64,000 nt of DNA. Source: Escherichia coli. Its GTDB lineage: Bacteria > Pseudomonadota > Gammaproteobacteria > Enterobacterales > Enterobacteriaceae. The notes beneath the pieces were generated by a model. The model was not told where the DNA came from. It saw only the letters and a list, made by a program, of their open reading frames with translations, and did not search any database. Position numbers and translations under genes: made by a program. The stretch lies in the NCBI RefSeq assembly GCF_044324785.1, contig NZ_CP172127.1; one strand, written 5' to 3'. Below, piece by piece: positions 1-14,357 of the stretch (position 1 is the first letter of the stretch; the number at the start of each line of letters is the position of its first letter).

Positions 1-203
1 AGGAAGGTCTGGCGCTGGTCGCGTTGATTGGCAATGACCTGTCAAAAGCCTGCGGCGTTGGCAAAGAGGTATTCGGCGTACTGGAACCGTTCAACATTCG
101 CATGATTTGTTACGGCGCATCCAGCCATAACCTGTGCTTCCTGGTGCCCGGCGAAGATGCCGAGCAGGTGGTGCAAAAACTGCATAGTAATTTGTTTGAG
201 TAA
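1..203 (+). CDS. lysC: Aspartokinase III, C-terminal fragment (5' end lies outside the window)
   Basis: In-frame translation ends ...CFLVPGEDAEQVVQKLHSNLFE with stop at 201-203, matching the LysC C-terminus; truncated by window edge. Confidence 0.8.
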   Translation, partial: EGLALVALIGNDLSKACGVGKEVFGVLEPFNIRMICYGASSHNLCFLVPGEDAEQVVQKLHSNLFE

Positions 204-455
204 ATACTGTATGGCCTGGAAGCTATATTTCGGGCCGTATTGATTTTCTTGTCACTATGCTCATCAATAAACGAGCCTGTACTCTGTTAACCAACGTCTT
301 TATCGGAGAATAATTGCCTTTAATTTTTTTATCTGCATCTCTAATTAATTATCGAAAGAGATAAATAGTTAAGAGAAGGCAAAATGAATATTATCAGTTC
401 TGCTCGCAAACGAATTCCCGTACACTGAACTCTCTGGCTCACTGAGGGCACCATC

Positions 456-728
456 ATGGCACTCCCCCGTATTACCCAAAAAGAGATGACTGAACGCGAG
501 CAGCGTGAACTTAAAACACTGCTGGATCGGGCGCGGATTGCGCATGGTCGCGTACTGACCAACTCCGAAACCAACAGCATTAAGAAAGAGTACATCGATA
601 AATTAATGGTCGAGCGTGAGGCTGAAGCGAAAAAAGCCCGCCAGTTAAAGAAAAAGCAGGCTTATAAACCGGATCCTGAGGCGTCATTTAGCTGGTCAGC
701 AAATACGTCGACGCGCGGCAGGCGCTGA
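456..728 (+). CDS. yjbD: DUF3811 family small basic protein
   Basis: 90-aa ORF MALPRITQKEMTEREQRELK...; conserved position between lysC and rluF. Confidence 0.75.
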   Translation: MALPRITQKEMTEREQRELKTLLDRARIAHGRVLTNSETNSIKKEYIDKLMVEREAEAKKARQLKKKQAYKPDPEASFSWSANTSTRGRR

Positions 729-1601
729 TTAACGCCCCTTCTTTTTACGCCCCGGCGAGGTAAAACGCTTACCGTTGGACGCCGGGCGACCGCCTTTTTC
801 CGCCGTTTTTTCCATCTTAACGACTGGACGTTTGATGCCTACCGTTTTCGGTTTGGCCTTCGCTTTAGGTTTTGCCTCGGAAGAGGAATTTTCAATGTGC
901 TTAAAGAGATCGATTAACTCATCGTCGGTTAAATCGCGCCACTCACCCAGCGGAATGCCGCTTAAGCTGACGTTCATAATGCGCGTACGTTCCAGCTTTT
1001 TCACTTCGTAACCAAAGTGCTCGCACATGCGACGAATCTGACGGTTCAGCCCCTGCACCAGGGTAATGCGGAAGACAAACGGCGCTTCTTTTTTGACTTT
1101 GCACTTTTTCGTCACCGTCCCGAGGATCGGCACCCCCGCCCCCATACCACGAATAAATTCATCGGTAATCGGTTTATCGACCGTCACCAGATACTCTTTC
1201 TCATGATCGTTACCCGCACGGAGGATCTTATTCACCAGATCGCCGTGATTGGTGAGGAAAATCAGCCCCTGAGAGTCTTTATCCAGGCGGCCAATCGGGA
1301 ACACGCGTTTGCTGTGGTTAACGAAATCGACAATGTTATCGCGCTCGCCATCTTCGGTGGTGCTGACAATACCGACGGGCTTGTTCAGGGCGATAAGTAC
1401 CAAATCTTCGGCTTCCCGAGGCTCAATCAACTGACCGTTTACTTTCACAACGTCGCCGGGTTTCACCTGATCGCCAATGGTGGCTCGCTTGCCATTAAGG
1501 AACACATTGCCTTGCTCGATATAGCGATCCGCTTCGCGGCGTGAGCAAATTCCGCTTTCGCTGATGTATTTATTTAAACGGACTGATGAGTCGGGCAGCA
1601 T
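729..1601 (-). CDS. rluF: 23S rRNA pseudouridine synthase RluF
   Basis: 290-aa ORF with S4 domain and RluA/RsuA-type pseudouridine synthase motifs ([10 protein letters not shown]). Confidence 0.9.
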
Positions 1602-1948
1602 AAATTCTCCTGTAAAACGCGGAATATACCGTACCTCTTAGCGGGGAAAAACAGGGTTATGCGGCAACGTCGAAATTAAATGTGATCTGCCACGCCTTTT
1701 ATCACAAAAGTGTCTCCGGAAGTACGATGCAAATTTGCCTGGCAAAATAAGGATAATCAACATATTACGAATCGCTGCACACCTGTGCTGATGACTACTA
1801 CGCAGAGAAACAAATGTGCAAGAGAAAGCGCTATTTCTCCCCATGCAAAGAGTGAAAAATCGCTTTGAAAGGCCATCATGATGGGGTTATATCAGATCAA
1901 GCGGTGAGAAAGCGTATTTGCACAAATGTGCAGAACCAGGAGGCGGCA

Positions 1949-2896
1949 ATGGAAAACAGTGACGATATCCGTTTGATTGTGAAGATTGCCCAACTCTATT
2001 ACGAACAGGATATGACGCAGGCGCAAATCGCGCGCGAACTGGGTATTTACCGCACCACCATCAGCCGCTTGCTTAAACGAGGCCGCGATCAGGGAATTGT
2101 CACCATCGCCATCAACTATGACTACAACGAAAATCTCTGGCTGGAGCAGCAACTGAAGCAAAAGTTTGGCCTGAAAGACGTTGTGGTGGTGTCGGGAAAT
2201 GATGAGGATGAAGAGACTCAACTGGCGATGATGGGGTTACACGGCGCGCAACTGCTGGATCGCTTGCTGGAGCCTGGCGATATTGTCGGTTTTTCCTGGG
2301 GTCGCGCGGTGAGCGCACTGGTTGAAAACTTGCCGCAGGCGGGGCAATCGCGGCAGTTAATCTGCGTACCAATTATTGGCGGACCGTCCGGTAAACTCGA
2401 AAGCCGCTATCATGTAAACACATTAACCTACAGCGCGGCAGCGAAGTTGAAAGGGGAATCGCATCTCGCGGATTTTCCGGCTCTACTGGATAACCCATTA
2501 ATTCGTAATGGGATCATGCAGTCTCAGCACTTTAAAACCATCTCTGCCTACTGGGATAATCTGGATGTCGCCCTGGTGGGAATTGGCTCACCGGCCATTC
2601 GCGACGGCGCTAACTGGCATGCGTTTTATGGTGGTGAAGAGAGTGACGACCTGAATGCCCGCCAGGTTGCTGGCGATATTTGCTCGCGCTTTTTTGATAT
2701 TCACGGCGCAATGGTTGAAACGAATATGAGCGAAAAAACACTCTCTATCGAAATGAATAAATTAAAGCAGGCGCGATATTCCATTGGCATTGCCATGAGC
2801 GAAGAAAAATACAGTGGAATTGTTGGTGCACTGCGTGGAAAATATATTAATTGTCTGGTAACGAATAGCAGCACAGCTGAACTATTACTGAAATAA
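1949..2896 (+). CDS. sorC: SorC-family transcriptional regulator of the sorbose operon
   Basis: 315 aa from ATG 1949 with AGGAGG RBS at 1937-1942; N-terminal HTH (MTQAQIARELGIYRTTISRLLKRG) plus sugar-phosphate binding domain; the ORF track's longer form uses an upstream TTG that I consider less likely. Confidence 0.8.
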   Translation: MENSDDIRLIVKIAQLYYEQDMTQAQIARELGIYRTTISRLLKRGRDQGIVTIAINYDYNENLWLEQQLKQKFGLKDVVVVSGNDEDEETQLAMMGLHGAQLLDRLLEPGDIVGFSWGRAVSALVENLPQAGQSRQLICVPIIGGPSGKLESRYHVNTLTYSAAAKLKGESHLADFPALLDNPLIRNGIMQSQHFKTISAYWDNLDVALVGIGSPAIRDGANWHAFYGGEESDDLNARQVAGDICSRFFDIHGAMVETNMSEKTLSIEMNKLKQARYSIGIAMSEEKYSGIVGALRGKYINCLVTNSSTAELLLK

Positions 2897-2965
2897 AAAT
2901 CTTCCCGATGTTTACCGTAATAAAAATTACGGCGGGTCCCTATTATCTAAAATCAGGAGTCTGTT

Positions 2966-3772
2966 ATGCAAACGTGGTTAAATTTGCAGGATAAAATCAT
3001 TATCGTCACCGGCGGCGCATCCGGTATTGGTCTGGCGATTGTAGAGGAATTATTAGCACAAGGCGCAAATGTACAGATGGTCGATATTCACGGTGGCGAT
3101 GGTCAATATGAAGGTCATAAAGGCTATCAGTTTTGGCCGACCGATATTTCCAGCGCCAAAGAGGTAAATCATACGGTAGCGGAAATTATCCAGCGTTTTG
3201 ATCGCATCGACGGTCTGGTCAATAACGCCGGGGTCAATTTCCCGCGTCTGCTGGTCGATGAGAAAGCGCCTGCCGGGCAGTATGAACTCAACGAAGCTGC
3301 ATTCGAAAAAATGGTCAATATCAACCAGAAAGGCGTTTTTCTGATGTCACAGGCGGTGGCGCGACAGATGGTCAAACAACATGATGGCGTGATTGTGAAT
3401 GTTTCCTCAGAAAGTGGACTGGAAGGCTCAGAAGGCCAAAGCTGTTACGCCGCGACCAAAGCCGCGCTTAATAGCTTCACGCGCTCCTGGTCGAAAGAGC
3501 TGGGTAAGCACGGTATCCGTGTGGTCGGTATCGCGCCGGGGATTCTGGAAAAAACAGGACTGCGCACGCCGGAATATGAAGAAGCGCTGGCGTGGACGCG
3601 CAATATCACCGTCGAGCAGCTGCGTGAAGGCTATACCAAAAATTCCATTCCTATTGGGCGCGCCGGAAGATTAGCAGAAGTGGCTGATTTTGTTTGTTAT
3701 CTGCTGTCTGAACGCGCCAGCTATATCACCGGAGTAACCACTAACATTGCAGGCGGCAAAACGCGCGGTTAA
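2966..3772 (+). CDS. sorD: Short-chain dehydrogenase, D-glucitol(sorbitol)-6-phosphate dehydrogenase type
   Basis: 268 aa; SDR Rossmann motif TGGASGIGLA and catalytic YAATKAA; second gene of the operon. Confidence 0.8.
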   Translation: MQTWLNLQDKIIIVTGGASGIGLAIVEELLAQGANVQMVDIHGGDGQYEGHKGYQFWPTDISSAKEVNHTVAEIIQRFDRIDGLVNNAGVNFPRLLVDEKAPAGQYELNEAAFEKMVNINQKGVFLMSQAVARQMVKQHDGVIVNVSSESGLEGSEGQSCYAATKAALNSFTRSWSKELGKHGIRVVGIAPGILEKTGLRTPEYEEALAWTRNITVEQLREGYTKNSIPIGRAGRLAEVADFVCYLLSERASYITGVTTNIAGGKTRG

Positions 3773-3781
3773 GGAGGCTTT

Positions 3782-4189
3782 ATGGTCAATGCCATTTTTT
3801 GCGCCCACGGCAAATTAGCCTGCGCCATGCTGGAATCGGTTCAGATGGTGTACGGCGATGCCAGGGTCGAGGCCGTTGAATTTGTGCCCGGCGAGAACGC
3901 CGGAGACATTGTGGCAAAGCTGGAGAAGTTAGTGAGCATTCACAATCATGACGAGTGGCTAATCGCCGTGGATTTACAGTGCGGCAGCCCGTGGAATGCG
4001 GCAGCGATGCTTGCGATGCGCAATCCTCGCCTGCGGGTAATCAGCGGCCTTTCTCTGCCGCTGGCGCTCGAACTGGTTGATAACCAGGACAGCATGAATG
4101 TTGATGAACTGTGTGAACACCTGACGCAAATCGCAAAGCAAACCTGCGTCGTCTGGAGACAGGTGGCAACAGCAGAGGAGGATTTCTGA
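3782..4189 (+). CDS. sorF: PTS mannose/sorbose-family EIIA component
   Basis: 135 aa; N-terminal AHG active-site histidine region typical of EIIA-Man; stop overlaps sorB start (ATGA). Confidence 0.8.
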   Translation: MVNAIFCAHGKLACAMLESVQMVYGDARVEAVEFVPGENAGDIVAKLEKLVSIHNHDEWLIAVDLQCGSPWNAAAMLAMRNPRLRVISGLSLPLALELVDNQDSMNVDELCEHLTQIAKQTCVVWRQVATAEEDF

Positions 4190-4683
4190 TGAACATTACG
4201 CTCGCCCGCATTGATGACCGCCTGATCCACGGCCAGGTCACTACCGTCTGGTCTAAAGTGGCTAACGCCCAGCGCATTATTATCTGCAATGACGAAGTTT
4301 ATAACGATGAAGTTCGCCGGACATTATTGCGTCAGGCTGCGCCACCGGGAATGAAGGTTAACGTGGTCAATATTGAAAAAGCCGTCGCGGTTTATCACAA
4401 CCCGCAATATCAGGACGAAACCGTTTTTTATCTTTTCACTCGCCCACAGGATGCCTTAGCGATGGTTCGCCAGGGGGTAAAAATAGGCACCCTGAATATT
4501 GGCGGCATGGCCTGGCGGCCCGGTAAAAAACAGTTAACCAAAGCGGTTTCATTAGATGATGATGATATTAACGCATTTCATGAGTTAAATAATCTTGGCG
4601 TCATACTGGATTTACGCGTCGTAGCGTCAGATCCCTCAATCAATATTATCGACAAAATAAACGAACAGTTAATCGCAAATTAA
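4189..4683 (+). CDS. sorB: PTS mannose/sorbose-family EIIB component
   Basis: 164 aa; RIDDRLIHGQV motif (phospho-His of EIIB-Man). Confidence 0.8.
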   Translation: MNITLARIDDRLIHGQVTTVWSKVANAQRIIICNDEVYNDEVRRTLLRQAAPPGMKVNVVNIEKAVAVYHNPQYQDETVFYLFTRPQDALAMVRQGVKIGTLNIGGMAWRPGKKQLTKAVSLDDDDINAFHELNNLGVILDLRVVASDPSINIIDKINEQLIAN

Positions 4684-4748
4684 ATAATAGCGCCTGTGTA
4701 CATATGCTTTAACAGGCAGGGATGACGACACTTAAAAGGTGACAAATC

Positions 4749-5546
4749 ATGGAAATAAGTACCCTACAAATCATTGCTATATTTCTTTTTTCCTGTATTG
4801 CCGGAATGGGCAGCGTGCTGGATGAATTTCAGACTCATCGCCCATTAATTGCCTGTACGGTGATTGGTTTAATTCTCGGTGATTTAAAAACCGGAATAAT
4901 ACTCGGTGGTACGCTGGAATTGATAGCTCTCGGCTGGATGAACGTCGGCGCGGCGCAATCTCCGGATTCCGCGCTCGCCAGCATTATCTCCGCCATTCTG
5001 GTTATCGTTGGTCAGCAAAGCATCGCCACCGGTATCGCCATCGCGTTGCCTGTGGCTGCTGCAGGCCAGGTACTGACGGTGTTTGCCCGCACCATCACCG
5101 TAGTGTTCCAGCACGCGGCGGATAAAGCAGCGGAAGAAGCACGGTTTCGCACTCTCGATATTCTGCATGTCTCCGCGCTTGGCGTGCAGGCGCTGCGCGT
5201 TGCTATTCCGGCACTAATTGTCTCGCTGTTCGTCAGCGCTGATATGGTGAGCAATATGCTGAGCGCCATTCCCGAATTTGTGACCCGTGGACTGCAGATT
5301 GCTGGCGGTTTTATCGTGGTGGTCGGTTACGCCATGGTGCTTCGCATGATGGGCGTGAAATATTTGATGCCTTTCTTTTTCCTCGGTTTCCTCGCAGGTG
5401 GCTACCTCGATCTCAGTCTGCTGGCGTTCGGTGGCGTCGGCGTGATCATGGCCCTGCTCTACATCCAGTTAAATCCACAGTGGCGTAAAGCTGAACCACA
5501 TCCCCAGACCACCACTATCACCGCCCTTGACCAACTTGATGATTAA
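4749..5546 (+). CDS. sorA: PTS mannose/sorbose-family EIIC permease
   Basis: 265 aa, strongly hydrophobic multi-pass membrane protein; operon position. Confidence 0.8.
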   Translation: MEISTLQIIAIFLFSCIAGMGSVLDEFQTHRPLIACTVIGLILGDLKTGIILGGTLELIALGWMNVGAAQSPDSALASIISAILVIVGQQSIATGIAIALPVAAAGQVLTVFARTITVVFQHAADKAAEEARFRTLDILHVSALGVQALRVAIPALIVSLFVSADMVSNMLSAIPEFVTRGLQIAGGFIVVVGYAMVLRMMGVKYLMPFFFLGFLAGGYLDLSLLAFGGVGVIMALLYIQLNPQWRKAEPHPQTTTITALDQLDD

Positions 5547-5556
5547 CGGAGCCATC

Positions 5557-6381
5557 ATGGAACAGAGAAAAATTACACGCAGCGATCTGGTGAGCATGTT
5601 TCTGCGCTCCAACCTGCAACAGGCGTCCTTCAACTTTGAACGCATTCATGGGCTGGGCTTTTGTTACGACATGATCCCCGCCATCAAACGACTTTACCCA
5701 TTAAAAGAGGATCAGGTTGCGGCGCTCAGGCGACACCTGGTGTTCTTCAATACCACGCCAGCCGTATGTGGCCCGGTCATCGGCGTCACTGCCGCCATGG
5801 AAGAGGCGCGGGCCAACGGCGCGGAAATTGATGACGGTACCATTAACGGCATCAAAGTCGGTCTGATGGGACCATTGGCAGGAGTTGGCGATCCACTGGT
5901 CTGGGGAACGCTGCGCCCGATTACCGCCGCGCTCGGCGCATCTCTGGCACTTTCGGGCAACATTCTCGGCCCGCTGCTGTTTTTCTTTATTTTCAATGCG
6001 GTGCGTCTGGCGATGAAGTGGTATGGCCTACAGCTCGGCTTTCGCAAAGGGGTGAATATCGTCAGCGATATGGGCGGGAATGTGCTGCAAAAACTCACCG
6101 AAGGCGCGTCGATTCTCGGACTGTTTGTGATGGGCGTGCTGGTGACCAAATGGACGTCAATCAACGTACCGTTGGTGGTTTCACAAACGCATGCCGCCGA
6201 TGGCTCCACCGTCACCATGACCGTGCAGAACATTCTCGACCAACTTTGCCCTGGTTTGCTGGCGCTCGGTCTGACGCTACTGATGGTTCGTCTGCTCAAC
6301 AAAAAAATTAACCCGGTATGGCTGATTTTCGCCCTGTTTGGCTTAGGGATTATCGGCAATGCGCTGGGCTTCCTGTCCTGA
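5557..6381 (+). CDS. sorM: PTS mannose/sorbose-family EIID permease
   Basis: 274 aa from ATG 5557 (MEQRKITRSDLV...); EIID-Man-like membrane protein; the ORF track start at 5527 would overlap the sorA 3' end. Confidence 0.8.
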   Translation: MEQRKITRSDLVSMFLRSNLQQASFNFERIHGLGFCYDMIPAIKRLYPLKEDQVAALRRHLVFFNTTPAVCGPVIGVTAAMEEARANGAEIDDGTINGIKVGLMGPLAGVGDPLVWGTLRPITAALGASLALSGNILGPLLFFFIFNAVRLAMKWYGLQLGFRKGVNIVSDMGGNVLQKLTEGASILGLFVMGVLVTKWTSINVPLVVSQTHAADGSTVTMTVQNILDQLCPGLLALGLTLLMVRLLNKKINPVWLIFALFGLGIIGNALGFLS

Positions 6382-6432
6382 TTCTTCGCCCCGGCACGAC
6401 TGCCGGGGCCATCGCTCAACATGAGGTGGTTT

Positions 6433-7662
6433 ATGAAAACAACAGCTCTGCGTCTTTATGGTAAACGTGATTTACGCCTGGAAACCTTTGATCTTCCTGA
6501 AATGCAGGAGGATGAAATCCTCGCGACGGTGGTCACTGACAGCCTGTGCCTCTCTTCCTGGAAAGAGGCCAACCTGGGTGAAAACCATAAAAAAGTACCC
6601 GACGATGTGGCGACCAACCCAATCATCATCGGCCACGAGTTTTGCGGCGATATTCTGGCCGTGGGTAAAAAGTGGCAGCACAAATTCCAGCCGGGTCAGC
6701 GTTATGTGATTCAGGCCAACCTGCAACTCCCCGACCGCCCGGACTGCCCCGGCTACTCCTTCCCGTGGGTGGGCGGCGAAGCCACGCATGTGGTTATCCC
6801 AAATGAGGTTATGGAACAAGATTGCCTGCTGGCATACGACGGCGAAACCTATTTTGAAGGCTCGCTGGTTGAACCGCTTTCCTGCGTGATTGGCGCGTTC
6901 AACGCCAACTATCATCTTCAGGAAGGTAGTTATAACCACACGATGGGGATTCGCCCGCAAGGGCGCACGCTGATCCTCGGCGGCACCGGACCAATGGGAC
7001 TGTTGGCGATTGATTATGCGCTGCATGGACCCGTTAACCCGTCGCTGCTCGTCATTACCGATACCGACAACGACAAATTGAGTTATGCGCGCAAGCACTA
7101 TCCATCAGAACCGCAAACACTGATTCATTATCTCAATGCCGCCGATGCAGCATTTGATACGTTAATGGCACTGAGTGGCGGTCACGGCTTCGATGATATT
7201 TTCGTCTTTGTGCCTAATGAAGGACTGGTGACTCTCGCCTCTTCCTTGCTGGCGACAGATGGTTGTCTGAATTTCTTCGCCGGACCGCAGGATAAGCACT
7301 TCAGCGCGCCAATTAATTTCTACGATGTGCATTATGCATTTACCCACTACGTGGGCACGTCAGGCGGCAATACCGACGACATGCGCGCAGCGGTCAAATT
7401 GATTGAAGAGAAAAAAGTGCAGGCCGCAAAAGTGGTAACACATATTCTTGGGCTGAATGCCGCGGGCGAAACCACGCTTGAATTGCCTGCCGTCGGCGGC
7501 GGCAAAAAGCTGGTGTATACAGGGAAATACCTGCCGCTGACGTCACTCACGCAGATTCAGGATCAAGCACTGGCGGCGATTCTGGCGCGTCATCAGGGGA
7601 TCTGGTCCGGTGAGGCGGAGCAATACCTGCTCGCCCATGCAGAAGCAATTTCCCATGATTAA
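6433..7662 (+). CDS. sorE: Zn-dependent dehydrogenase, L-sorbose-1-phosphate reductase type
   Basis: 409 aa from ATG 6433 (MKTTALRLYGKRD...); MDR/alcohol-dehydrogenase family with GHEFCG zinc motif; last gene of the operon. Confidence 0.75.
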   Translation: MKTTALRLYGKRDLRLETFDLPEMQEDEILATVVTDSLCLSSWKEANLGENHKKVPDDVATNPIIIGHEFCGDILAVGKKWQHKFQPGQRYVIQANLQLPDRPDCPGYSFPWVGGEATHVVIPNEVMEQDCLLAYDGETYFEGSLVEPLSCVIGAFNANYHLQEGSYNHTMGIRPQGRTLILGGTGPMGLLAIDYALHGPVNPSLLVITDTDNDKLSYARKHYPSEPQTLIHYLNAADAAFDTLMALSGGHGFDDIFVFVPNEGLVTLASSLLATDGCLNFFAGPQDKHFSAPINFYDVHYAFTHYVGTSGGNTDDMRAAVKLIEEKKVQAAKVVTHILGLNAAGETTLELPAVGGGKKLVYTGKYLPLTSLTQIQDQALAAILARHQGIWSGEAEQYLLAHAEAISHD

Positions 7663-7822
7663 TCGCGCTACTTAACTCTGCATGTCGCTGGCTGGTCGCC
7701 GCGGCAACTTCGCGACCTGATGTGCGGCTGATTGCAGAAGCGGCACAATGTGCACGAGAAGGATAAAAAACATCAGCGCCTTAAGGGGCGCTCAAATTGG
7801 TGGCAAAGTGCACATTGTTTAT

Positions 7823-7920
7823 GCCGGATGCGGAATGAAGCCTTATTCGGCCTACAAAATCGCGAAAATTCAAGACATTGCAATTAGCTTGTAGGCCTGA
7901 TAAGCGTAGCGCATCAGGCA
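7823..7920. repeat. REP/BIME-type palindromic units (two inverted REPs) downstream of sorE
   Basis: gccggatgcggaatgaagccttattcggcctac and gtaggcctgataagcgtagcgcatcaggca, typical REP consensus. Confidence 0.7.
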
Positions 7921-8043
7921 ATGCTGTGTTTGTCATCAGGCTCAACGCCCGGTGCAATACGTGACATCGTGAGCCATGTCAGTAAGTGGTTAAATTCGCA
8001 GTGGTAGCATGCCTTCCGTGATTTCTTACTAACCGGAGAAGTA

Positions 8044-8733
8044 ATGGAACTGCTTTTATTGAGTAACTCGACGCTGCCGGGTAAAGCCTGGCTGGAACAT
8101 GCACTGCCGCTAATTGCTGAACAGTTGCAGGGTCGCCGCTCAGCGGTGTTTATCCCTTTCGCTGGCGTAACGCAGACCTGGGATGATTACACAGCGAAAA
8201 CGGCTGCGGTTCTCGCTCCGCTGGGTGTTTCTGTCACCGGTATTCATAGCGTTGTCGATCCCGTTGCCGCGATTGAAAATGCTGAGATCGTGATTGTCGG
8301 CGGCGGTAATACTTTCCAGTTGCTGAAACAGTGCCGCGAGCGCGGGCTGCTGGCACCAATTACTGACGTGGTTAAACGTGGCGCGCTGTATATTGGCTGG
8401 AGCGCTGGCGCTAACCTTGCTTGCCCAACCATTCGTACCACCAACGATATGCCGATTGTCGATCCGCAAGGTTTCGATGCGCTGAATCTGTTCCCGTTGC
8501 AAATCAACCCGCACTTCACCAACGCGCTGCCGGAAGGCCATAAAGGTGAAACCCGTGAACAGCGTATTCGCGAACTGCTGGTCGTCGCGCCAGAACTCAC
8601 AATTATTGGTCTACCGGAAGGTAACTGGATCACAGTGAGTAAAGGTCACGCAACGCTGGGTGGCCCGAACACCACTTATGTGTTTAAGGCTGGTGAAGAA
8701 GCGGTTCCGCTGGAAGCGGGTCACCGTTTTTAA
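8044..8733 (+). CDS. pepE: Peptidase E (alpha-aspartyl dipeptidase)
   Basis: 229-aa [32 protein letters not shown]..., S51 peptidase. Confidence 0.9.
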
Positions 8734-8740
8734 ATGAATT

Positions 8741-8810
8741 GCCGGATGCATAATCCGGCATCTTGTTCATCGTGCCTGATGCGACGCTTTACGCGTCTTA
8801 TCAGGTCTAC
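8741..8810. repeat. REP elements between pepE and yjbB
   Basis: gccggatgcataatccggca ... gcctgatgcgacgctttacgcgtcttatcaggtctac. Confidence 0.65.
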
Positions 8811-8822
8811 AGGGTCACGGTA

Positions 8823-10454
8823 TTAATACTCGTCCCGTCCTTCGTCTTCATCCGGCTGTTCCAGCACACTGTAAGCCACCGAACAAAACAGCGAGTTCAG
8901 ACGCTGCATATCTCCCAGTAAGCCTAAATGTAGCGAACTGGTTTCAATGCTTTGCACGTTTTGCTGATGCAGGCGATCGACGTGAGCATGGGAATAACGG
9001 CGATTAAGAATGCGAAAACGATGCTTGCTGCGGCGCAAACGACGGGCGCTGGTAACATCGCCAGAGAAGAAAACCGACATTGCCAGTTTTAAATTACTGA
9101 GCAATTGCTCATAGAGCGCATCCAGTTCCTTCAAGCCATCAAGCGAAAATGCCCGCCGTGCTGCCAGCGATTTATCGGCAATTTCGCTCCCCATGCGCTC
9201 GACGATATCGGAGGCCTGTTCAAGGTTGAGCGACATTTCGATGATCTCCGCCCAGCGGCGCGACTCTTCCTCCGCCAGCTCTTCTTTTGGCATCCGCGCC
9301 AGATACAGCTTAATGGCGGTATAGAGAACGTTGATATCATCAGCCAGCTTACGCAGCTCTTTCTCCTGCCGTGGCTCGCCGTGCATCACTTTATTCAGCC
9401 CTTCCATCATCTGTTCCATGGCGTCGCCAATGCGCAGGGTTTCGCGGGCGGCGTTCGCCAGAGCAAGCGTGGGCGTATCCAGCGCGCTGACATCCAGATG
9501 TTTAGGCCGTAGCTGGGTATCCAGTTCCGGTTCATCGCGAATAATCGTTTTGCAAAACCGTGCCATCGGGTCAACAAATGGCAGCATGACCAGGCAACGT
9601 ACAAGGTTGTAGAAGACATGGAAATAGATCACCAGTTCCGCTTTTGGCAATGGCAACTTCCCCATTGTCTCTGCCAGCAAATGAACAAACGGCAGGATAA
9701 TCAGGCTACCCACCAGCTTAAACAGCAGACTACCCAGCGCGACACGGCGGGCTGCGGCATTGGCGGCACTGTTGTTGAGCATCGCCAGCAGGCCGGAACC
9801 GAGGTTAGCACCAATCACCAGACAGAGCGCCACGGGGAAGGAGATAATGCCTGCGGCGGTCAGAGTCGCGGTCAGCAGTACAGCAGCAAGGCTGGAGTAG
9901 CTGATAATGGCGAACATCGCGCCAATCAGCGCATCCAGCAGAATATCGCCGGTCAGCGAGGCAAAGATCACCTGAACGCCGTTTGCCTGGGTGATCGGCG
10001 TTACGGCCTGCACAATCAACTCCAGCGCCAGCAAAATCAGCCCAAGACCAATACCGACGCGGCCCAGTTGCCCGGCGCGTGACTGTTTGCGTCCGAGGAA
10101 AAAAATCACGCCGATAAAAATAAGTAACGGTGACAGCCAGGATAAGTCGAAGGTGAGAATACGCGCCATTAGCGCCGTCCCGACATCTGCACCCAGCACA
10201 ATCACCAGAGCCGGTGCGAGGGCAACCAAATCCTGAGCGACGAACGAGGTCACCAGCATGGTGGTGGCATTACTGCTCTGCACCAGTGCGGTAACGCCGA
10301 TCCCCGCGCAAAAGGCAAGCGGCTTCTTTTCGACGCTTCGGCTAAGAACAGTACGCAGACGCGCGCCGAAGACGCGCATTACGCCTGTTCGAACAATATG
10401 CGTCCCCCAGACCAACAGGGCGACGGCAGAAAGCAGGTGAAGCAGCGTTAACAC
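8823..10454 (-). CDS. yjbB: Na+/phosphate cotransporter family membrane protein
   Basis: 543 aa; hydrophobic N-terminal half plus PhoU-like C-terminal domain; conserved downstream of metH. Confidence 0.85.
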   Translation of the reverse strand: MLTLLHLLSAVALLVWGTHIVRTGVMRVFGARLRTVLSRSVEKKPLAFCAGIGVTALVQSSNATTMLVTSFVAQDLVALAPALVIVLGADVGTALMARILTFDLSWLSPLLIFIGVIFFLGRKQSRAGQLGRVGIGLGLILLALELIVQAVTPITQANGVQVIFASLTGDILLDALIGAMFAIISYSSLAAVLLTATLTAAGIISFPVALCLVIGANLGSGLLAMLNNSAANAAARRVALGSLLFKLVGSLIILPFVHLLAETMGKLPLPKAELVIYFHVFYNLVRCLVMLPFVDPMARFCKTIIRDEPELDTQLRPKHLDVSALDTPTLALANAARETLRIGDAMEQMMEGLNKVMHGEPRQEKELRKLADDINVLYTAIKLYLARMPKEELAEEESRRWAEIIEMSLNLEQASDIVERMGSEIADKSLAARRAFSLDGLKELDALYEQLLSNLKLAMSVFFSGDVTSARRLRRSKHRFRILNRRYSHAHVDRLHQQNVQSIETSSLHLGLLGDMQRLNSLFCSVAYSVLEQPDEDEGRDEY

Positions 10455-10616
10455 GAGTTCAGGTTCTCCTTATCGTTATATGTTCCTGAAGCAATTGAAT
10501 GACCAAAGGACCGGAAACACACTGACTGGCATCTTTACTGTGCCTTTTGACCTTCGTTTTTCCGGCTAAGATTATTCCAGCCTGATTCCAGTATAAGTGT
10601 TTCATATTAATAAAGA

Positions 10617-10641
10617 GACAGGGCACTCATTGAGCGCCCTG
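10617..10641 (-). terminator. Candidate intrinsic terminator downstream of metH
   Basis: Perfect inverted repeat acagggcactcattgagcgccctgt about 30 nt after the metH stop; the trailing tract is only weakly T-rich. Confidence 0.5.
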
Positions 10642-10673
10642 TTTGTTGTAAGGAAAAGTGACAGATTTGTGAA

Positions 10674-14357
<3,684 letters not shown>

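Follow-up and report, generated by a model that had tools for sequence, protein, structure and literature searches.

Roughly 6.4 kb separates rluF (729–1601, minus strand) from pepE (8044–8733, plus strand) in the 64,000-nucleotide stretch of Escherichia coli DNA analyzed here (the window), an interval that spans exactly 6,442 bp (1602–8043). K-12 MG1655, as the original prediction had stated, has no sor genes at this position and only 211 bp between pepE and rluF. The locus raises the questions of what the additional DNA encodes, whether it works, and whether it was gained by this lineage or lost from K-12. We find that it is the chromosomal L-sorbose utilization operon sorCDFBAME of E. coli and that it is intact in this strain; taken as a whole, we are highly confident that the best explanation is a known and intact sor operon that is ancestral at this site and was lost from K-12.

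Seven intact plus-strand ORFs are tightly packed between 1949 and 7662 in the order sorC-D-F-B-A-M-E. The operon is headed by sorC (1949–2896, 315 aa), which encodes a SorC-family regulator, followed by sorD (2966–3772, 268 aa), encoding an SDR-type D-glucitol-6-phosphate dehydrogenase. Four genes for a mannose-family PTS come next: sorF (EIIA; 3782–4189, 135 aa), sorB (EIIB-Sor; 4189–4683, 164 aa), whose first nucleotide is the last of the sorF stop codon, sorA (EIIC; 4749–5546, 265 aa), and sorM (EIID; 5557–6381, 274 aa). The last gene, sorE (6433–7662, 409 aa), encodes an L-sorbose-1-phosphate reductase of the MDR superfamily; its longest ORF starts at 6421, and we adopted the start annotated by PGAP and kept in relatives. 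The intergenic spacers from sorC to sorE measure 69, 9, −1, 65, 10, and 51 bp, in agreement with the co-directional and closely spaced arrangement predicted from the sequence. The order of genes in the window is rluF-sor-pepE-yjbB-metH, as it is in strain N3, and in CE10 iclR adjoins metH, placing the operon near metH and iclR; Wehmeier et al. (1992) are said to have mapped the sor genes of EC3132 to the same neighborhood. Other E. coli sor operons occupy the same rluF-sor-pepE-yjbB-metH-iclR locus and show only allelic differences from the window.

Profile searches bear out the predicted family of each product. SorC combines N-terminal helix-turn-helix models (residues 12–53) with a C-terminal PF04198 sugar-binding domain (residues 59–316, 270.6 bits). 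SorD matches NF004817, "sorbitol-6-phosphate dehydrogenase subunit", at 498.8 bits against a cut-off of 304, and carries the motifs TGGASGIG (15), NNAG (86), and YAATK (161). All four PTS components exceed their curated cut-offs: SorF (TIGR00824, 145 bits, cut-off 98), SorB (TIGR00854, 223 bits, cut-off 164), SorA (TIGR00822, 423 bits, cut-off 340), and SorM (TIGR00828, 472 bits, cut-off 293), and a phosphorylatable histidine is present in both IIA (His9, within a CAHG motif) and IIB (His14, within RIDDRLIHGQ). This four-component organization with His-phosphorylated IIA and IIB is shared with the E. coli mannose PTS (manXYZ) and the aga PTS. However, ManX is a fusion of IIA and IIB, which are two distinct proteins in the window, the window proteins score below the cut-offs of the ManX, AgaF, AgaV, AgaW, and AgaE equivalog models, and the PTS genes are linked to those for SorE, SorD, and SorC rather than to man or aga genes. 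SorE scores 30.4 with Pfam ADH_N (cut-off 23.5) and 29.6 with ADH_zinc_N, slightly below the cut-off of 31.8, and contains Cys39, GHE at 67, EPLS at 147, and GTGPMG at 184. Because no curated NCBIfam model passes its cut-off for SorE, its assignment rests on orthology: the protein is identical at 409/409 residues to WP_000858558.1 of ST131, named sorE by PGAP, and this same accession in strain N3 is a 100% tblastn match to the window SorE. PGAP labels the same genes, among them "sorE: L-sorbose 1-phosphate reductase", in loci that are identical or nearly so.

The closest described counterpart is the sorCDFBAME operon of Klebsiella pneumoniae, reportedly characterized by Sprenger & Lengeler in 1984 and by Wohrl et al. 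in 1990, whose seven genes correspond to those of the window in identity and order; the gene lengths in the window presumably approximate the published Klebsiella sizes. We compared SorC and SorB directly with K. pneumoniae proteins of known structure, and each proved 87% identical over its full length (SorC, 274/315 residues to PDB 2W48; SorB, 139/160 residues to IIB-Sor, PDB 1NRZ), while the other five proteins, compared with genomes of the Klebsiella oxytoca group, are 78–96% identical. The expected orthology to Klebsiella Sor is thereby upheld, as is the expected gene order, since C-D-F-B-A-M-E recurs in Klebsiella, Raoultella, and Citrobacter loci. In Klebsiella oxytoca-group and Raoultella genomes, the operon likewise lies between rluF and pepE. 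Protein divergence between Klebsiella and the window is 5–25%, with SorF (75–80% identical) the most diverged. The comparison of the five proteins other than SorC and SorB also drew on a published CFT073 table, which gives 82–97% similarity (PMC2831201).

The pathway put forward in the original prediction, comprising PTS uptake followed by the SorE and SorD reactions, agrees with that given in the literature (PMC13410766). In this scheme, the mannose-family PTS would import L-sorbose and release L-sorbose-1-phosphate inside the cell, with phosphoryl groups relayed by EI and HPr from PEP to SorF (IIA) and SorB (IIB), and with SorA and SorM (IIC and IID) as the membrane pair. SorE would then reduce L-sorbose-1-phosphate to D-glucitol-6-phosphate, which SorD would oxidize to D-fructose-6-phosphate for entry into glycolysis. 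SorC is expected to repress the operon when sorbose is missing and to activate it when sorbose is present, a dual regulation reportedly described by Wohrl et al. in 1990, and would act through conserved TGCACA-N2-TGTGCA palindromes upstream of sorC.

Within the regulatory region (1637–1948, plus strand), several blocks proved invariant or nearly so when 18 loci, representing at least eight genera, were aligned. These comprise a CRP-like left half-site, AAATGTGATCT (1678–1688); a −10-like GATAAT (1752–1757), where the columns A.AATCA are invariant; a near-palindrome, TGCACACCTGTGCT (1776–1789); GGGGTTATATCAGATC (1883–1898); a perfect palindrome, TGCACAAATGTGCA (1919–1932), which we propose as the SorC operator; and a GGAGG ribosome-binding site (1939–1943). 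A promoter scan of 1602–1948 found no consensus sigma-70 promoter, and the palindrome motif shows no statistical enrichment over the window (3 occurrences vs 3.6 expected, allowing up to 2 mismatches), so that it is invariance across genera that points to the palindrome. We infer from this conservation a candidate promoter and a putative SorC operator upstream of sorC.

Immediately downstream of sorE, the spacer contains a feature that the original prediction had missed, a relic of sdhL (7655–7766, plus strand) that precedes the repetitive element described below. This shikimate-dehydrogenase-like sequence of the HI0607 class aligns as two collinear blocks with the E. whittamii locus L005. Its ATG overlaps the sorE stop (ATGATTAA); other genera have an 8-nt overlap of sdhL with sorE, and in Klebsiella and Raoultella the overlapping sdhL-like gene is intact. 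In relatives the intact protein matches the SdhL (HI0607) class, PDB 1NPY, from end to end (E = 6e-113), and the gene beside the sor operon of ST648 is induced by sorbose (PMC12817954). In the window, by contrast, 700 bp corresponding to L005 11281–11980 are absent between 7712 and 7713, joining codons 1–19 out of frame to the final 17 codons, and codon 7 is a stop (TAA). An intact sdhL would encode some 270 aa and have the SDH fold; with only 112 bp left, a codon 7 stop, and a frameshifting deletion, the remnant is no longer a gene. The same deletion junction occurs in 2,643 E. coli genomes, including ST131 and Nissle 1917, whereas 177 E. coli genomes, like most enterobacterial sor loci, retain an intact sdhL.

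The system is a known one, as had been stated at the outset: many E. coli strains use this operon to grow on L-sorbose, and others have cloned a homologous operon from E. coli (PMC2831201) or made knock-outs and knock-ins of such operons (PMC12817954). In CFT073 the sor genes are c4981–c4987, and a cloned fragment carrying them allowed DH5alpha to grow on L-sorbose (PMC2831201); the cloning primers match the window at 1607–1630 and 7663–7692 with zero mismatches. During exposure of ST131 and ST648 to L-sorbose, the seven sor genes showed the top log2 fold change among differentially expressed genes, and sor knock-out and knock-in strains (ST131, ST10) were altered in competitive fitness (PMC12817954). 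The nearest complete genome to the window, that of strain N3, is 99.2% identical over 10.5 kb, most others being about 97.5% identical.

It is nevertheless conceivable that the operon is cryptic or non-functional here, or carries a different ketose or hexose, and that the strain is phenotypically Sor-negative. Sorbose genotype and phenotype sometimes disagree in E. coli, and the Klebsiella glucitol-6-phosphate dehydrogenase has been reported to be temperature sensitive (PMC2831201); in addition, an eighth gene, sdhL, is destroyed in the window. The details of the locus speak otherwise. All seven sor ORFs are full length with their catalytic motifs, the encoded proteins share 97–100% identity with their counterparts in ST131, Nissle 1917, and CE10, including strains shown to use sorbose, and the regulatory region is 99.7–100% identical to that of other sor-positive E. 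coli. The loss of sdhL also carries little weight, as the growth-conferring CFT073 fragment ends at 7692 and its primer GCTACTTAA has the same relic sequence with the codon 7 stop, implying that sdhL is unnecessary for growth on sorbose. We therefore regard a Sor-negative phenotype as very improbable. A missense or regulatory defect may be present in this strain's operon, SorM and SorD each departing from the ST131 proteins at 4–5 residues, but the conserved gene content suggests that the strain should grow on L-sorbose.

Comparison with K-12-type genomes delimits the variable DNA. Homology to the empty site extends from the left to position 1636 (164/166 identical), so that 1602–1636 of the left spacer is shared, and resumes in the pepE-proximal spacer (7954–8043, plus strand; 90 bp, 95.6% identical), which presumably holds the pepE promoter and ribosome-binding site. 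In place of the intervening 6,317 bp (1637–7953), K-12-type genomes carry 80–86 bp of unrelated filler. The sor operon is present in 2,865 of 5,426 complete E. coli genomes, about half, and the empty allele in 2,557 (∼47%). The view of the locus as strain-variable therefore stands, although the variable part is 1637–7953 and not the whole spacer, and it is best read as a loss from K-12-type strains rather than as an addition to this one.

This direction of change is suggested by the wider distribution of the locus, which we take to mark the operon as an old resident of the rluF-pepE interval in Enterobacteriaceae. The arrangement yjbD-rluF-sorCDFBAME-(sdhL)-pepE-yjbB is found in E. whittamii, other Escherichia, Pseudocitrobacter, Citrobacter, Klebsiella, Raoultella, and Enterobacter, and the portion from sorA to yjbB is present on a truncated contig of E. 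albertii; the Cedecea sor locus gave no match to pepE. In Citrobacter, Klebsiella, Raoultella, and Enterobacter, the nucleotide identity of the sor genes to the window (74–86%) is similar to that of the flanks (79–88%). Moreover, one near-identical empty allele accounts for the 2,557 sor-negative genomes, with at least 99% identity in 2,549 of them, arguing that K-12 lost the operon. The ancestral operon would originally have possessed an eighth, translationally coupled gene, sdhL, and E. coli would have reduced it in two ways: a 700-bp deletion that destroyed sdhL, giving the state of the window and of ∼49% of complete genomes, and a deletion of ∼6.3–6.9 kb that removed everything, giving the K-12 type (∼47%).

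The converse reading takes the 6.3-kb segment for a metabolic islet that arrived by horizontal transfer and entered an empty, K-12-like rluF-pepE spacer in this strain's ancestor. It draws on the absence of the segment from about half of E. coli genomes, and a 2026 paper leaves the "acquisition" of the operon an open question (PMC13410766). We consider such a gain very unlikely: the operon keeps its position and orientation in at least eight genera, its genes have diverged to the same extent as the flanks, it occurs at this site in E. albertii, E. whittamii, and other non-coli Escherichia, and the empty allele hardly varies, in keeping with a single recent deletion. It is chiefly the derived phylogroups A and B1 that lack the operon, which is present in >86% of genomes of every other phylogroup (PMC12817954). 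Nor does the segment resemble a genomic island. As predicted, its edges have no IS, integrase, or tRNA; there is no mobility ORF, and neither spacer (347 and 381 bp) has room to encode an IS or integrase. The proposed search for direct repeats at the edges returned neither direct nor inverted flanking repeats and no target duplication, and the GC content of the variable segment (0.514) does not deviate from that of the rest of the window (0.523).

Two observations do count against a simple loss and also lend the gain reading some support. First, 80 bp of the empty allele is absent from present E. coli sor-positive alleles, such that neither state is trivially derived from the other, and part of this filler is nearer to Citrobacter and Klebsiella than the sor-positive Escherichia haplotype is. 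Second, in Pseudocitrobacter the sor genes are 86–93% identical to the window at the nucleotide level, compared with 80–82% for pepE and yjbB, hinting that the block can move by homologous recombination. Because of the private filler and the closer Pseudocitrobacter sor genes, some inter-lineage recombination has occurred at the locus, in addition to the loss from K-12 that we favor.

The right side of the operon had been described as bounded by a REP/BIME cluster. A BIME is indeed present (7822–7922, inverted repeat I16), consisting of two inverted REPs (∼7822–7857 and 7889–7922) able to pair, but it is single rather than a cluster, and it sits within the variable segment and is not a boundary common with K-12. 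It is missing from the CE10 allele. The element has a predicted folding energy of −59.3 kcal/mol (z = −2.6), and E. coli genomes contain a median of 20 copies of it.

The interval between rluF and pepE encodes an L-sorbose operon, sorCDFBAME; the seven co-directional genes that the original prediction placed here were all found, on the plus strand and with families as it described. The 3' end of lysC opens the window, yjbD (456–728, plus strand) and rluF (729–1601, minus strand) then precede the operon, and pepE (8044–8733, plus strand) and then yjbB (8823–10454, minus strand) follow it. The identities of yjbD, rluF and pepE come from NCBIfam equivalog models. Within the operon, sorC (1949–2896) encodes an HTH protein with a PF04198 sugar-binding domain (270 bits), and the product of sorD (2966–3772) scores 499 bits with NF004817, "sorbitol-6-phosphate dehydrogenase subunit" (cut-off 304). 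The IIA, IIB, IIC and IID components are encoded by sorF (3782–4189), sorB (4189–4683), sorA (4749–5546) and sorM (5557–6381), respectively, each scoring above cut-off in a mannose/fructose/sorbose TIGRFAM, and sorE (6433–7662) encodes an MDR-type dehydrogenase whose ADH_N match lies above cut-off and whose ADH_zinc_N match lies slightly below it. The longest sorE ORF extends from 6421; we took 6433 as the start because it is the PGAP start in identical loci and is conserved in E. whittamii and Raoultella. From sorC to sorE, the intergenic spacers measure 69, 9, −1, 65, 10 and 51 bp. The phosphorylation motifs of SorF (His9) and SorB (His14) are present, as are TGGASGIG, NNAG and YAATK in SorD and Cys39, GHE, EPLS and GTGPMG in SorE.

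End-to-end alignment of SorC with its K. pneumoniae counterpart (PDB 2W48) gives 274 identical residues of 315, and SorB shares 139 of 160 residues with K. pneumoniae IIB-Sor (PDB 1NRZ). RefSeq E. coli genomes label the equivalent block "sorE: L-sorbose 1-phosphate reductase" plus PTS subunits, and the Sor proteins of an ST131 strain, Nissle 1917 and CE10 show 97–100% identity to the window's. Furthermore, the published primers used to clone a CFT073 sor fragment that gives DH5alpha growth on L-sorbose (PMC2831201) both match without mismatch, one over 30 of 30 nt at 7663–7692 and the other over 24 nt at 1607–1630, which places the validated fragment at window 1602–7692. The published pathway, in which PTS uptake yields sorbose-1-P that is reduced to D-glucitol-6-P and subsequently oxidized, giving D-fructose-6-P (PMC13410766), is the one originally predicted. 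In ST131 and ST648 given L-sorbose, PMC12817954 places the seven sor genes at the top by log2 fold change among differentially expressed genes, and reports altered competitive fitness for sor knock-out and knock-in strains. In high-risk lineages, the operon has been tied to both fitness and virulence (PMC13410766, PMC12817954). Orthology, annotation, exact primer matches and the published pathway thus support the earlier verdict: this is an already known system, experimentally validated in E. coli, and its intact presence in the window strain is a useful annotation rather than a discovery.

SorC is reportedly both a positive and a negative regulator, to go by the title of Wohrl et al. 1990. 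An alignment of the rluF–sorC spacer from 18 loci revealed several invariant blocks: AAATGTGATCT at 1678–1688, where the left CRP half-site is good and the right one poor; CACAAAAGTG; GCAA.TTTG; a −10-like A.AATCA, with GATAAT at 1752–1757; GCACA-N3-GTGC at 1777–1788; CAAATGTGCAA; GGGGTTATATCAGATC at 1883–1898; and TGCACAAATGTGCA at 1919–1932, a perfect palindrome directly 5' of the sorC RBS. We propose the TGCACA/TGTGCA palindromes as candidate SorC operators. Because TGCACA-N2-TGTGCA was not enriched across the window, this motif is retained solely as a conservation-based operator candidate. A consensus promoter scan of the region upstream of sorC returned no promoter.

The use of L-sorbose classically varies among E. 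coli strains. As stated in the original prediction, K-12 has only a short intergenic region here, with 211 bp between pepE and rluF in MG1655. Homology between the window and this empty site stops at 1636 and restarts at 7954, and hence the variable segment spans 1637–7953 (6,317 bp). Among 5,426 complete E. coli genomes, 2,865 carry the operon, scored as at least 80% of window 1–10500, and 2,557 carry the K-12-type filler, which is at least 99% identical in 2,549 of them. Together the two classes account for 5,422 genomes; the rluF–pepE site has essentially two alleles, and the sor-negative genomes are all explained by one that hardly varies.

We next considered whether the operon was gained or lost at this site, scanning for SorE in one genome per GTDB species and mapping flanking proteins onto the matches. 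The order yjbD-rluF-sorCDFBAME-...-pepE-yjbB recurs in E. whittamii, other non-coli Escherichia, Pseudocitrobacter, several Citrobacter, the Klebsiella oxytoca group, Raoultella and Enterobacter. Cedecea keeps the gene order without a full pepE match, and the incomplete E. albertii contig covers sorA to yjbB only. Nucleotide identity to the window in Citrobacter, Klebsiella, Raoultella and Enterobacter is 74–86% for the sor genes and 79–88% for the flanks (lysC, yjbD, rluF, pepE, yjbB and metH), a divergence that, by sequence identity, is as vertical descent predicts. The variable segment also lacks the marks of an island. Its GC content is 0.514, against 0.523 for the remainder of the window; a tRNA scan of 1–12,000 was empty; an Rfam scan of 1–10,500 gave only a sub-threshold naRNA4/REP match 3' of pepE; and the spacers at the operon edges (347 and 381 bp) are too short to accommodate a mobility gene, in agreement with the original prediction. 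The direct-repeat check it had suggested, run over 1500–8150 for direct and inverted repeats, gave chance-level short matches only, with no pair joining the two junctions. Finally, according to PMC12817954, over 86% of genomes carry the operon in each phylogroup except A (9.6%) and B1 (12.1%). From cross-genus order, matching divergence, absence of island signatures and phylogroup distribution, we conclude that the rluF–pepE site held the operon ancestrally and that K-12-type strains lost it, a single deletion allele accounting for its absence in them. The conclusion is relevant to how strains "acquired" sor, a question that one fitness and virulence paper terms open.

One feature of the empty allele sits poorly with simple excision from a present-day sor-positive haplotype. 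Bases 1–35 and 116–211 of its 211-bp spacer match sor-positive alleles, the latter stretch best matching the BIME-less CE10 allele, and the intervening 80 bp (bases 36–115; 2267–2346 in L002, the K-12-type locus) occur in the empty allele alone. We rejected the idea that this filler is a scrambled sor remnant, since blastn-short against the window and CE10 matches only the two edges. The first half of the private stretch is nearer to the rluF-proximal spacer of Citrobacter and Klebsiella than to the Escherichia/Pseudocitrobacter sor-positive haplotype, and the deletion allele is therefore not simply derived from a present sor-positive allele. Pseudocitrobacter is 86–93% identical to the window in the sor genes and 80–82% in pepE and yjbB; a recent sor transfer between Pseudocitrobacter and Escherichia was rejected, as sor identity is only mildly above that of the flanks and not decisive. 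Together with the filler's affinities, these identities indicate that some recombination between lineages has probably shaped the left edge.

In E. whittamii, Raoultella and almost all other enterobacterial sor loci, sorE is followed by a 270-aa ORF whose ATG overlaps the sorE stop by 8 nt (ATGATTAA). Its product matches H. influenzae HI0607 (SdhL, PDB 1NPY) end to end (E = 6e-113); intact copies lie at 11223–12035 of the E. whittamii locus (L005) and 8943–9755 of the CE10 locus (L085). The window retains a relic of this gene: 7655–7712 corresponds to sdhL codons 1–19, with a TAA at codon 7, and 7713–7766, in a different frame, to the final 17 codons plus the stop, 700 bp being gone between 7712 and 7713 (L005 11281–11980). 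The same junction is shared by 2,643 E. coli genomes, ST131, Nissle 1917 and ATCC 25922 among them, and the missing 700 bp is present in 177, such as CE10, where PGAP names the product "shikimate 5-dehydrogenase". The E. coli site thus exists in three discrete states: eight genes, seven genes plus the sdhL relic, or empty. In the available portion of PMC12817954, sdhL adjoins the operon in ST648 and is sorbose-induced, and ST131 is given as without it. To that portion we add the cross-genus conservation of sdhL, its overlap with sorE and the relic in "absent" strains: in other genera sdhL is a conserved eighth operon gene rather than an ST648-specific neighbor, and in most sor-positive E. coli it is a stump. 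These details, with the ancestral site, single deletion allele and three-state locus, are small refinements that published work partly foreshadows. Because the CFT073 clone ends within the relic yet confers growth, sdhL is dispensable for sorbose catabolism.

To our knowledge, the SdhL class has no known physiological role. We tentatively suggest, as a possibility we consider less likely than not, that the ancestral enterobacterial sor operon had eight genes, the last an SdhL-class gene translationally coupled to sorE through ATGATTAA, conserved in Escherichia, Pseudocitrobacter, Citrobacter, Klebsiella, Raoultella, Enterobacter and Serratia, and serving a sorbose-linked role. SdhL might, for instance, have an L-sorbose-related ketohexose or cyclitol as its substrate; the Gluconobacter 5-ketofructose reductase (PDB 7COK), also an SDH-family enzyme, is said to make L-sorbose. 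Most E. coli, including the window strain, would then have fixed the 700-bp deletion relic, the function being unneeded for growth on sorbose. If true, this would provide the first metabolic context for the SdhL class.

The sorE–pepE spacer (7663–8043) had been described as holding a REP/BIME cluster that bounds the operon on the right. A BIME is indeed present, although it is a single element (7822–7922, two inverted REP units) 3' of the sdhL relic, which shares the spacer. Its predicted fold is stable, and the median genome carries it at 20 places. Its position within the variable segment and its absence from the CE10 allele show that it does not mark a boundary. The sole strong terminator-like hairpin (7775–7792) is partly made of the BIME-bearing insert; we rejected it as a terminator, since it is found on the minus strand only and is not conserved in the CE10 allele. 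Terminator-like sites in the consensus scan were at chance level (9 found, 7.2 expected).

Several observations concern other sor loci. Partial tblastn matches to SorE in E. albertii (L042) and Escherichia sp. MOD1-EC7003 (L044), and to SorD in "E. coli" SCPM-O-B-8794 (L008), suggest pseudogenized sor genes in some non-coli Escherichia, with sdhL intact there. In several Citrobacter and Klebsiella spallanzanii (L011, L014, L023, L033, L047), the sorE–pepE gap reaches 4–9 kb, with extra genes between the sor/sdhL block and pepE; the operon's right side seems to be a recurrent insertion point. More distant sor-like clusters occur in Gilliamella (within L038–L048), where sorB-A-M-E precedes a sorC-like gene with no sorD or sorF match nearby at the thresholds applied, and in Enterococcus (L034, L036), with the order C-D-(F?)-B-A-M-E and 40–73% amino acid identity.

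The flanks vary as well. Some E. coli carry, between lysC and yjbD, about 3.4 kb of zeta-toxin family, nucleotidyltransferase-domain and slipin-family genes (846–3732 in both L003 and L004, 1–1215 in the CE10 locus; none at window 204–455). This trio occurs with or without the sor operon and looks like a small toxin or defense module. Between the convergent yjbD and rluF stops, K-12-type genomes hold a GC-rich palindromic element of 132 bp (L002 1227–1358; CCCTCACCCTAACCC...GGGGCGAGGGGAC) that looks BoxC-like; the window lacks it and has the two stops directly adjoining at 728|729. Just 3' of pepE, 8740–8807 forms a hairpin and REP-like element (Rfam naRNA4, 40 bits against a gathering score of 59.5). 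Two small hypothetical genes lie between yjbB and metH in CE10 (L085 12459–13271) and Nissle 1917 (L088 9986–10798).
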